Assembly: GCA_002402275.1 (NCBI GenBank)
Contig: DHFN01000025.1
Coordinates: forward strand, 1 to 36,236
Reading direction: 5' to 3'
Source: Anaerolineales bacterium UBA4823
Lineage (GTDB): Bacteria > Chloroflexota > Anaerolineae > Anaerolineales > UBA4823
DNA length: 36,236 bases
Shown here: positions 20,607 to 23,170 of the stretch, piece after piece
How positions within the stretch are numbered: the first letter of the stretch is position 1
Layout: every line of letters begins with the position of its first letter
Notes under the pieces: generated by a model
Database searches by the model: none
Told to the model about the DNA's origin: nothing
The model's input: only the letters and a program-made list of their open reading frames with translations
Made by a program: the position numbers and the translations under genes

Positions 20607-23170
20607 GTTTAGATTCCTTACTCGAGCGCTGGCAAGCTGACCAGTCAATCCGAGAAAATATTGTATTTTGGGAGAAAACGCCCGCCCGCCCCGCAGTAAA
20701 ATGCCCTTTTCCTGCTGAAATTTCCCCTTCTTTACAACATGTCCTCAGAAGTCAAGGAATTCCGCAACTCTATCAGCATCAAGCTAACGCTTACAAATTA
20801 ATAAACAATGGCGAGAACCTTCTGATTACTAGTGGAACAGCAAGCGGAAAATCATTATGTTATAACCTCCCGGTCATTAATGATCTTATTCAGCATCCAA
20901 ATAATTGTGCATTCTATTTATTTCCGACCAAAGCACTTGCACACGATCAAGCTCTAAAGTTAAAAGAATTATTGCACTTTATCCCGGAATTTAACAGAAA
21001 ACACCCTCAAGAATCCGATGCGTTAATTGGAATGTACGATGGAGATACCCCTCCAACTCAGCGGCAATTCATTCGCCAAAACGCCCAACTGATTTTCACC
21101 AATCCAGATATGCTTCATTTTGGTATTCTTCCCAACCACCCTCAGTGGGATAGGGTCTTATCAAATTTACGTTTCATAATCATTGATGAGATTCATGTTT
21201 ATCGAGGGGTTTTTGGTTCTCATATCGCCAATGTCATTCGTAGATTAAAAAGGCTAATTGAGTATTATGGGGGGAACGTAAACTTTATTCTGACTTCTGG
21301 CACAATCTCCAACCCTTATGCGTTTGCAACAAAACTCATCGAAGAACCTATCACTTTATTGGATGAAGATGCTTCGCCTAAAGGAGAAAAAAACCTCATA
21401 TTCTATAATCCCCCCATTATCCAGGCAGAATTTGGGCTGCGGGCACATCCTTTTCGGGAAGCAAAAAAATTAATGGATGATCTCCTTAAAAACTGCTCTC
21501 AATCAATTGTCTTCTGCACAAGTCATAGATCCGTTGAACGTTTATTAATCGAGCTCCGCCAAGTCTATGATTCAGAGCTAGAGGGGAGTTTTAGTCAAAT
21601 TCAAGGTTATCGGAGCAGCTACTTACCAGAACATAGGCGGCAGATAGAACAAGATTTAAAATCAAATAAGATAAAAACTGTCGTTGCAACCAACGCTCTT
21701 GAACTCGGCATTGATATTGGCGAACTAGAAGCGGTCCTCTTGATTGGTTTTCCGGGTAGTATTGCCTCAACCTGGCAACAAATCAGCCGGGCAGGCAGAA
21801 AGAACCAGACTTCTCTAGGTATCCTCATCCTGACATCCGATCCATTAGACCAATACCTTGCCCGAAATCCCCAATACTTTCTCGAAAGCTCCCCTGAACA
21901 ACCATTGATTAATCCGGATAACCCATTAATCCTTCTCAATCACTTGCGTTGCGCAATGGCAGAATTACCATTTCAAGAGCATGAAAACTTTGGAAAAGCG
22001 AACCAACCCTTAGTTGAGGCTTTGTTCACTGCGATTTTGAATTACAAAGAAGCAATCTATGAAACCGGCAGCTATTATTATATTTCCCCAACTGCACCCC
22101 AAAATTTCTCCTTGCGTAGCAGCAGTTTCTCGAATATTCAACTCATCGTTGAACATGAAAACTCATTAAACCGAATTGGTTATATTGATCGAAATAGTGC
22201 TGACCGATTAGTCCATCCAGGTGCGATCTATCTTCATGAAGGGGAAACCTATCGTGTGATGGAGTTAGACCTTGATAATAACACAGCGAAATTATCACCA
22301 ACAAATGTCGAATATCTTACTAACCCCCATCAAGAAAGCACGATAGATGACCTTACCGCTTTATCCACGCGACACTTCCGATATTCAGAAGGAGAAAGTT
22401 TTCGATTAGGTTACGGAGATGTGACTGTAAACATGCAAGTGACAGGGTACTCAAAAGTGGATTGGGATTCGCATCAGGTTATTGAAAGAATTCCCCTGGC
22501 TCTTCCTCCTCAAACGTTAGCCACTAAAGCCTTTTGGATCAGTATCGGGGAACAACTAGTTAATGACCTTCGCTCCCAAGGGCTCTGGTCAGCTGAACCT
22601 AACAAATATGGAACAGGGTGGGAACACCAAAAAAACCTTGCCCGAGCGAGAGATGGATACCGTTGCCAAATTTGTGAAGTACCCGAGACAGATCACGCGC
22701 ATGATGTCCATCATAAGATTCCTTTCCGGCTCTTTGAGGATTCAGAAGAAGCGAATCGGCTCGAGAATCTGATTACTCTTTGTCGAAATTGTCACCAAAA
22801 AGTAGAAAGTAACCTACGCATCCAAAGCGGCTTAGCTGGATTAGGGTATGCTTTGAGCCATATTGCACCATTATTTGTGATGTGTGACCGAAATGATCTC
22901 GGGCTTCATGTTGACCCAAATTCTAGATGGGAAAACCGATTACCAACCATTTTGATCTATGAGAATATTGCTGGTGGAATAGGATTAAGCCAACGAATCT
23001 TTGAAATCGCATTAGAATTATTACACTCGGTTTATCACCATATCGCCCAATGTCCTTGTCCAGATGGCTGCCCTTCTTGTACGGGAGCAGTGAGTGAAAA
23101 TGGGATTAGCGGAAAAGCCGAAGCGTTGATTTTACTGGAAAAAATAATTAACTATGAACAACCTTTCTGA
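20603..23170 (+). CDS. mrfA: MrfA/YprA-family DEAD/DEAH-box (DEIH) helicase with a C-terminal DUF1998 zinc domain and an inserted HNH nuclease motif
   Basis: LYQHQANAY, Walker A [62 protein letters not shown] and QQISRAGR match the YprA/MrfA pattern. DUF1998 cysteines are [10 protein letters not shown] (23051-23080). The HNH motif RCQICEV....HHKIPF....[10 protein letters not shown] lies at about 22664-22795. The start overlaps the degV stop (ATGA). Confidence 0.85.
   Translation: [855 protein letters not shown]

Follow-up and report, generated by a model that had tools for sequence, protein, structure and literature searches.

MrfAB is a recently recognised excision repair pathway that is independent of UvrABC. 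In the published models, the helicase MrfA unwinds DNA and the exonuclease MrfB degrades from a free 3' end; targeting is left to "a yet to be identified factor," and the source of the 3' end is unassigned (PMC11194089; PMC7797055; 10.1101/426304). We describe here the computational analysis of a 36,236-nucleotide contig of Anaerolineales bacterium UBA4823 (DHFN01000025.1, assembly GCA_002402275.1; this whole stretch is referred to as the window), in which the gene at 20603-23170 encodes an MrfA/YprA-family helicase with an HNH domain of phage type inserted between its CON connector sheet and its MZB zinc domain. The gene that follows it encodes a homolog of MrfB. We know of no endonuclease in the MrfAB pathway of Bacillus subtilis, and the HNH domain may supply the DNA-cutting step of this form of repair; the existence of a large HNH-bearing clade makes the gap concerning the source of the strand break directly testable.

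The closest solved relative of the helicase is MrfA/YprA of B. subtilis (6ZNP/6ZNQ/6ZNS), whose domains are ordered NTR-RecA1-RecA2-WH-OB-CON-MZB. CON occupies residues 557-630 and MZB residues 631-749; the four cysteines that bind zinc lie on a short coil towards the end of MZB (PMC7797055). DNA enters through a funnel lined by RecA2, OB, CON, and MZB; during the MrfA cycle MZB rotates by about 63 degrees, rolling the CON/OB canopy, and the displaced strand is thought to pass between MZB and RecA2 (PMC7797055). In a recent and particularly thorough survey of the YprA family, canopy inserts set the defence branch apart from the YprA-only and MrfAB branches, and no HNH domain is mentioned in any clade (PMC12458937).

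The Anaerolineales protein shares with B. subtilis MrfA the same order of domains, the helicase motifs, and the zinc cluster. Its features are as follows.

20603..23170 (+): mrfA/yprA-like superfamily 2 (SF2) helicase gene with HNH insert, 855 residues (open reading frame, Pfam, 6znp alignment, and structural model)
20774..21310 (+): RecA1/DEAD domain, residues 58-236, with motif I TASGKS and motif II DEIH (PF00270, E 4.1e-27)
21470..21802 (+): RecA2/Helicase_C domain, residues 290-400, with motif VI [8 protein letters not shown] (PF00271, E 8.7e-15)
21908..22117 (+): winged-helix domain, residues 436-505 (PF22982 WHD_HRQ1, 26.6 bits, slightly below the cutoff of 27)
22118..22546 (+): OB fold and CON connector beta-sheet, residues ~506-648 (aligned to MrfA 491-632)
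22547..22822 (+): segment in place of the 12-residue CON/MZB linker of MrfA, residues 649-740 (6znp and homolog alignments)
22664..22807 (+): HNH beta-beta-alpha-metal core, residues 688-735 (PF01844, 35.1 bits against a gathering cutoff of 21.4, E 1.5e-8; phage family phrog_8446, E 1.3e-22; Foldseek)
C688/C691/C727/C730, within the HNH core: predicted zinc ligands (two CxxC pairs; alignment to the GVE2 HNH and IscB)
22709-22714, 22766-22768, and 22793-22795 (+): putative catalytic HNH residues H703-H704, N722, and H731
22823..23143 (+): MZB/DUF1998, residues 741-847 (PF09369, E 3.3e-20 at residues 748-827; aligns to MrfA 645-749)
23051-23080 (+): four-cysteine zinc cluster of MZB, [10 protein letters not shown] (C817/C819/C823/C826, invariant in 80 homologs)

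Membership of the MrfA/YprA family is evident from both architecture and fold. Pfam finds DEAD, Helicase_C, WHD_HRQ1, HNH, and MZB in the protein; the tandem RecA-like domains carry SF2 motifs I, II (DExH), and VI, and they are followed by the C-terminal WH-OB-CON-MZB module with its four-cysteine zinc cluster. In an alignment of 80 homologs, S81, G82, K83, D195, E196, and H198 of RecA1 are invariant, as are Q392, R396, G398, and R399 of motif VI (QQISRAGR). The winged-helix segment aligns with the WH domain of MrfA, and the CON/OB limits, taken from the MrfA structure paper (PMC7797055), enclose a region modelled as long beta strands (571-594, 597-620, and 637-648). The protein is 36% identical to B. 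subtilis MrfA (6znp, 751 residues; E 2.8e-175). An AlphaFold2 model built from the 80 homologs has a mean predicted local distance difference test score (pLDDT) of 87.4 and a predicted TM-score (pTM) of 0.83, and Foldseek aligns it with DNA-bound MrfA (6znp_A) at a TM-score of 0.81, normalised to the target. The protein is not a TIGR03817 equivalog: it scores 613.7 bits against a cutoff of 874.1 (NCBIfam), in two stretches split near the insert, the first of which stops at residue 656. Public records label proteins of this kind only "DEAD/DEAH box helicase."

The original prediction, made from the sequence of the window, had placed an HNH motif at 22640-22810, inside DUF1998, and had taken the protein to be longer than B. 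subtilis YprA by an insertion. The motif is indeed there: its translation, [57 protein letters not shown], is in frame within 20603-23170, the paired residues lie exactly where they had been put (C688-C691 at 22664-22675, H703-H704 at 22709-22714, and C727..C730-H731 at 22781-22795), and PF01844 and PF09369 both match the one protein. The extra length (855 versus 751 residues) is also due to an insertion. In the alignment with 6znp, residues 12-648 correspond to MrfA 13-632 and residues 741-847 to MrfA 645-749, leaving 92 residues, which include the HNH, where B. subtilis MrfA has a linker of 12 (residues 633-644). Because it is MrfA 633-644 that are replaced, the insertion lies, given the published CON and MZB limits, at the CON/MZB junction (PMC7797055). 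The insertion thus stands, but its supposed location does not: the insert precedes both the Pfam DUF1998 envelope and the C817/C819/C823/C826 cluster, which is intact, and it lies outside the DUF1998 core.

An alignment across this junction shows that the segment is absent not only from B. subtilis MrfA but also from Firmicute, actinobacterial, and haloarchaeal homologs; the linker has 13 residues in Brevibacillus, 15 in Tsukamurella (Mycobacteriales; this row is the annotated coding sequence), and 18 in Haloarcula, versus 92-98 in the Anaerolineae. Since the ancestral linker accounts for the initial ~11 residues of the segment (helix 650-658) in this alignment, the acquired module comprises about residues 660-738, or roughly 80 amino acids.

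Modelling bore out the expectation of a textbook beta-beta-alpha unit. In the full-length model, the insert has pLDDT values of 76-94 per ten-residue block and 65 over residues 731-740, and it consists in order of helix 650-658, helix 673-683, a zinc hairpin, strands 701-704 and 723-726, and helix 728-737; its modelled core is a beta-beta-alpha fold. Modelled alone, the insert reaches a pLDDT of 81.9. Foldseek searches with the full-length model retrieved helicases only, and the HNH matches emerged with the model of the insert, for which the best PDB matches are nearly all HNH nucleases; the matches include the phage GVE2 HNH (5h0m), Cas5-HNH, CBASS Cap5, T4 endonuclease VII, the Cas9 HNH, and the ZRANB3 HNH. 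The small size of the domain keeps the E-values of these matches modest (from 1e-2 upward), although the probabilities of the top matches are 0.98-1.00. In the viral library BFVD, the matches are significant, extending down to E 1.7e-7 at 47% identity, and those that are named are HNH-type or related nucleases. In sequence alignment, the H-N-H positions of the GVE2 HNH and of an IscB HNH correspond to H704, N722, and H731.

The conservation of the insert matches that of the helicase around it. The pattern CxxC...VHH...N...NLxTxC..CH is kept in 120/120 of the best database homologs, which are 45-69% identical overall, and the full HNH motif is present in 80/80 species-representative genomes, with no decayed copies. 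In the 80-sequence alignment, C688, C691, H703, H704, C727, C730, H731, and E735 are invariant, and N718 and N722 are conserved in at least 90%. Averaged over alignment columns, identity is 0.69 in the insert as a whole and 0.73 in its HNH core, compared with 0.68 and 0.71 for the two RecA domains and 0.71 for MZB. On this indirect evidence, the insert looks like a domain that selection has maintained for catalysis, and we infer nuclease activity from it: the HNH is probably an active, domesticated nicking domain coupled to helicase translocation.

A single disrupted copy was seen. The 932-residue homolog P0198 has the normal sequence as far as [12 protein letters not shown], after which it turns into low-complexity sequence rich in Arg, Ala, and Pro, without the rest of the HNH and without a Pfam match to MZB; it looks like a frameshift, from either an assembly error or a pseudogene.

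Conservation of this kind could be read differently, with the HNH as a non-catalytic zinc-finger lobe, that is, a canopy element that binds DNA, senses lesions, separates strands, or docks a protein. Folding by itself would preserve the four zinc cysteines, no obvious strand-separation pin is present in MrfA (PMC7797055), and the canopy modules of YprA-family helicases have often acquired small zinc-binding inserts (Bell et al., PMC12458937). The residues kept in the insert, however, include non-structural ones, namely H704, the general base, and H731, a metal ligand, both invariant, together with N722, conserved in at least 90%. Inactivated nuclease domains normally lose their catalytic residues. 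The module is, moreover, 42-60% identical to free-standing viral HNH endonucleases, and a lobe without catalysis seems to us unlikely.

The domain is not peculiar to one genome. A scan with an alignment of the insert only, against one genome per species of GTDB, found an encoded relative in at least 545 species genomes; the details that follow come from the best 80 of these. All 80 loci encode an insert-bearing helicase, which in most aligns end to end with the window protein, the rest being cut by contig ends or aligned in pieces. These 80 belong essentially to one class, the Anaerolineae of the Chloroflexota (Anaerolineales, Caldilineaceae, Leptolinea sp. HRD-7, Anaerolinea thermolimosa IMO-1, and similar organisms), and the named members of more divergent protein clusters are likewise Chloroflexota. 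The clade contradicts the generalization that repair-branch YprA helicases have uninterrupted OB-CON-DUF1998 canopies (PMC12458937).

Two exceptions among the 80, L052 and L079, are on contigs labelled as Gemmatimonas or Gemmatimonadota metagenome-assembled genomes, with 58% identity in the insert; L052 has MrfB adjacent to the helicase. Either mis-binning or horizontal transfer out of the Chloroflexota would account for them.

Pairs of homologs that are more alike in the insert are also more alike elsewhere in the protein (Mantel r 0.64, a value reached by 0/999 permutations), and the GC content at third codon positions (GC3) is 0.38 in the insert and 0.36 in the rest of the gene. Because of this correlation and the matching GC3, we regard the insert as old and vertically inherited rather than as a mobile passenger. 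The same data bear on the idea that an in-frame homing-type HNH endonuclease, or its relic, is parasitising the helicase gene. Such an element would fit the closest relatives of the domain: these are free-standing HNH endonucleases, encoded by phages and haloarchaeal viruses, that bear the NUMOD3 or zinc-ribbon repeats typical of homing enzymes. The module here is, however, only ~80 residues long, lacks both intein splicing blocks and DNA-binding repeats, occupies the same site in all 80 genomes and all 120 proteins, and is conserved to the same degree as the helicase core with which it co-diverges. A selfish element is accordingly a very improbable explanation.

An intein was considered separately and is likewise unlikely. 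About 80 residues compare with at least ~130 for an intein; there is no Cys/Ser at the start and no HN plus Cys/Ser/Thr at the end, and the distribution is not sporadic.

As to where the module came from, an exhaustive search with residues 649-740 returned 854 cluster representatives at E <= 1e-10. These include helicases of ~850 residues and many proteins of 200-300 residues in which a C-terminal HNH, the only Pfam domain, shows about 50-60% identity with the insert across ~70 residues and is accompanied by N-terminal CxxC-rich or NUMOD3-like repeats. Ten of the free-standing relatives were traced to their contigs, all of them short metagenome contigs. A tblastn search of phages found HNH endonuclease genes of haloarchaeal tailed viruses and of mycobacteriophages at 42-50% identity. 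The phage and haloviral enzymes (phrog_8446, phrog_1271, the GVE2 HNH 5H0M, HCTV-5, and HVTV-1) belong to the HNH subfamily of the insert and have the same fold and the same pattern, W..R..RD..CxxC..HH..P..N..NLxTLCxxCH, and free-standing viral HNH sequences as a whole are 42-60% identical to the insert over ~70-75 residues. They differ in being independent enzymes of 100-300 residues with their own zinc-ribbon or NUMOD3 repeats, whereas the helicase contains the catalytic module only. Judging from these similarities, the simplest history is the capture of the catalytic module from a free-standing endonuclease of the virus type, and the helicase illustrates cleanly how a core repair motor can domesticate an HNH module of phage type.

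Such closeness between haloviral genes and a domain of a Chloroflexota helicase is unexpected. Haloarchaeal tailed viruses carry, several times per genome, HNH genes at 42-50% identity to the insert; Halovirus HCTV-5 (KC292027.1) has them in 5 places, and one haloviral copy is annotated as a "eukaryotic-like five-Zn-finger DNA-binding protein."

A phage-type HNH on a YprA-family motor also raises the possibility of an antiviral effector, a helicase-nuclease that moves on foreign DNA and cuts it in the manner of Cas3 or DruE. DISARM, Druantia, Dpd, and ARMADA all have a YprA-family helicase at their centre (PMC12458937). In PADLOC, the helicase core matches SngC, BrxH, DruE, and DrmA, and the HNH segment (residues 682-738; 22646-22816) matches positions 4-56 of 545 in the DpdF model PDLC02859; adjacent MrfB, as described below, was not found in more than half of the loci. 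Similarity to MrfA rather than to the defence clades, however, extends over the full length of the protein. PADLOC matches other than PDLC02859 cover the helicase core only, and the neighbours had no significant match; here and in related loci these neighbours are housekeeping genes, with integrase, methylase, and known defence genes absent. No partner genes of the YprA-based defence systems DISARM, Druantia, Dpd, and ARMADA/BRIGADE/TALON (DrmB/C/MTase, DruH and others, the Dpd cluster, or McrBC-like genes) stand beside the helicase in the window, and no defence-island or mobile-element features were seen in the window or in the related loci. RecA1 (58-236) passes directly into RecA2 (from about 251-290), leaving no room for the BrxA-like insert that follows RecA1 in the ARMADA/Druantia lineage (PMC12458937), and no additional domain appears there when the model is laid over MrfA. 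A gene found in at least 545 species, the best 80 of them essentially of one class, also co-diverges like a core gene. The suggestion in the original prediction that the protein might be a defence nuclease is therefore disfavoured by its housekeeping neighbours, by PADLOC matches mostly confined to the helicase core, and by vertical inheritance across a whole class; we hold a defence role, and a defence-island setting with it, to be rather unlikely.

The PDLC02859 match implies that some variants of DpdF, a YprA-like helicase of the Dpd defence system, carry an N-terminal HNH, which would be an independent HNH-YprA association in a defence clade.

The second component of the proposed system is the gene directly downstream of the helicase.

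23154..24383 (+): mrfB-like DEDDh 3'-5' exonuclease with C-terminal TPR (PF13482 RNase_H_2, E 2e-33, plus TPR); its start overlaps the mrfA stop by 17 nucleotides

The DEDDh exonuclease noticed beside the helicase proves to be a true MrfB homolog. Its product matches PDB entry 8un9, "Exonuclease MrfB," at E 1.6e-35 with the DEDDh motif residues visible in the alignment, so that the window contains both genes of MrfAB, the overlapping DEDDh+TPR gene being the counterpart of B. subtilis MrfB (8UN9). Linkage was counted over the 72 loci with enough downstream sequence: MrfB is immediately adjacent to the HNH-bearing helicase in 30/72 and nearby in 4/72, and it was not detected within ~6 kb in 38/72, where the neighbours are varied housekeeping genes on either strand. 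The cultured Anaerolinea thermolimosa IMO-1 (L055) and Leptolinea sp. HRD-7 (L029) are among those with mrfB next to the helicase. In one protein, P0128 (775 residues, partial), the sequence starts within the OB region and continues through HNH and MZB into an in-frame MrfB-like RNase_H_2+TPR. It looks like a natural fusion of the HNH-bearing helicase with MrfB and is probably truncated at its N-terminus by the contig end.

Taken together, we favour, at a rough probability of 0.55, the view that helicase, HNH, and MrfB form a self-contained excision machine in which the HNH makes an incision gated by translocation or stalling. On this view, the protein is a 3'-5' SF2 DNA helicase of the repair (MrfAB) branch, in which an ancestor of the Anaerolineae captured a phage or free-standing-type HNH module of ~80 residues that its descendants have retained as part of the protein. 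The module occupies the short linker that joins the CON beta-sheet to the MZB zinc domain, which would put it at the front of the moving helicase; in B. subtilis MrfA the corresponding position lies at the edge of the funnel and belongs to the canopy, which shifts with every step of translocation (PMC7797055). The HNH would be a catalytically active nuclease that cuts a single strand, its access to DNA would be governed by translocation or stalling of the helicase, and its incision would supply a 3' end to MrfB or free the damaged strand. The strand and site of the cut, its coupling to ATP hydrolysis, and its role in repair are likewise what we infer. The translational coupling of mrfA and mrfB here, the adjacency in 30 of 72 loci, and the P0128 fusion favour an excision machine. 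Several points weigh on the other side. B. subtilis MrfAB functions without an HNH; the invariant histidines and cysteines could also mark a purely structural metal site; and since MrfB was undetected within 6 kb in 38 of the 72 loci, the HNH cannot depend strictly on an adjacent MrfB. The function of MrfA is, in addition, apparently species-specific, so that its mitomycin-type role may not transfer to the Anaerolineae (10.1101/426304).

More tentatively, the HNH-bearing MrfA might by itself be an ATP-driven "scan, stall and nick" excision enzyme. It would translocate 3'-5' until a bulky lesion or a DNA junction stalled it; movement of the canopy would then bring the HNH active site against the DNA where it enters the funnel. 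The cut made there would serve as the incision, to be resected by MrfB or, where mrfB is not adjacent, by another exonuclease. If this possible scheme were true, the Anaerolineae would have hard-wired the factor missing from the B. subtilis MrfAB pathway. Searches in other bacteria would then have a type of enzyme to aim at, and the protein, with or without a second one, would define a machine for UvrABC-independent excision repair.

The joining of a DNA motor to a nuclease is already known in principle. ZRANB3, a human SNF2-family translocase (5MKW), likewise combines an ATP-driven DNA motor and an HNH in one polypeptide and is an ATP-dependent structure-specific nicking enzyme, the mode of action that we propose for the helicase here. 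Its HNH is among the fold matches of the insert, weakly (ranks 26 and 30, E ~1-2). The two have no evolutionary link: ZRANB3 is an SNF2 translocase on double-stranded DNA with a C-terminal HNH, whereas the protein here is a DUF1998 SF2 helicase on single-stranded DNA with the HNH inserted. Cas3 (HD+SF2), DruE, and the DpdF variants with N-terminal HNH also join an SF2 or YprA-family motor to a nuclease, and nucleases fused to or encoded beside YprA helicases have been listed by Bell et al. (PMC12458937). In these defence fusions, the nuclease (PLD, Vsr, PD-(D/E)xK, or HD) is terminal or a separate gene, and the helicase is of the defence branch with partner genes; in the helicase described here, the HNH is internal, the branch is MrfAB, and defence partners are absent. 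We did not find an MrfA/DUF1998 helicase with an HNH, in the Anaerolineae or elsewhere, described in the literature, in which subscription journals were thinly covered. What sets the protein apart from ZRANB3, Cas3, DruE, and the DpdF model is an internal HNH in a helicase of the MrfAB branch.

The helicase and mrfB genes lie in a tight block of five genes on one strand (19680-26160, +), in the order degV, mrfA, mrfB, bPH_2+SHOCT, and a creatininase-family gene. The flanking genes with overlapping ends are the following.

19680..20606 (+): degV-family gene (PF02645, E 1.3e-77); its stop overlaps the mrfA start by 4 nucleotides
24380..25021 (+): bPH_2+SHOCT membrane protein gene (PF03703, PF09851); its start overlaps the mrfB stop by 4 nucleotides

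The degV-family gene is probably in the same operon as mrfA. The fourth junction, between bPH_2+SHOCT and the creatininase-family gene, is a gap of 8 nucleotides. A bPH-SHOCT gene is near the helicase in 13/80 loci. The whole block is kept only in the closest relatives (L001-L003, L005, L006, L015, and L020), and bPH-SHOCT and creatininase genes recur a few kb downstream in some of the more distant loci. To our knowledge, none of the degV, bPH-SHOCT, and creatininase genes has a functional link to MrfAB.

Elsewhere in the window, the neighbours are creatininase-family, AAT, and glycosyltransferase genes. At 14124-18881 (-), a sensor histidine kinase of 1101 residues (Reg_prop beta-propeller plus Y_Y_Y) lies between two OmpR-type response regulator genes (14124-14831 and 18177-18881, the latter assigned to this type by sequence only); this region appears to be ordinary two-component signalling, unrelated to the helicase. 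At 33288-35497 (+), two GT4 glycosyltransferases with secondary Pfam matches to PF20706 "GT4-conflict" (27-41 bits) adjoin Wzy_C, GT2, and GT4 genes, and this region is most likely an ordinary polysaccharide cluster.

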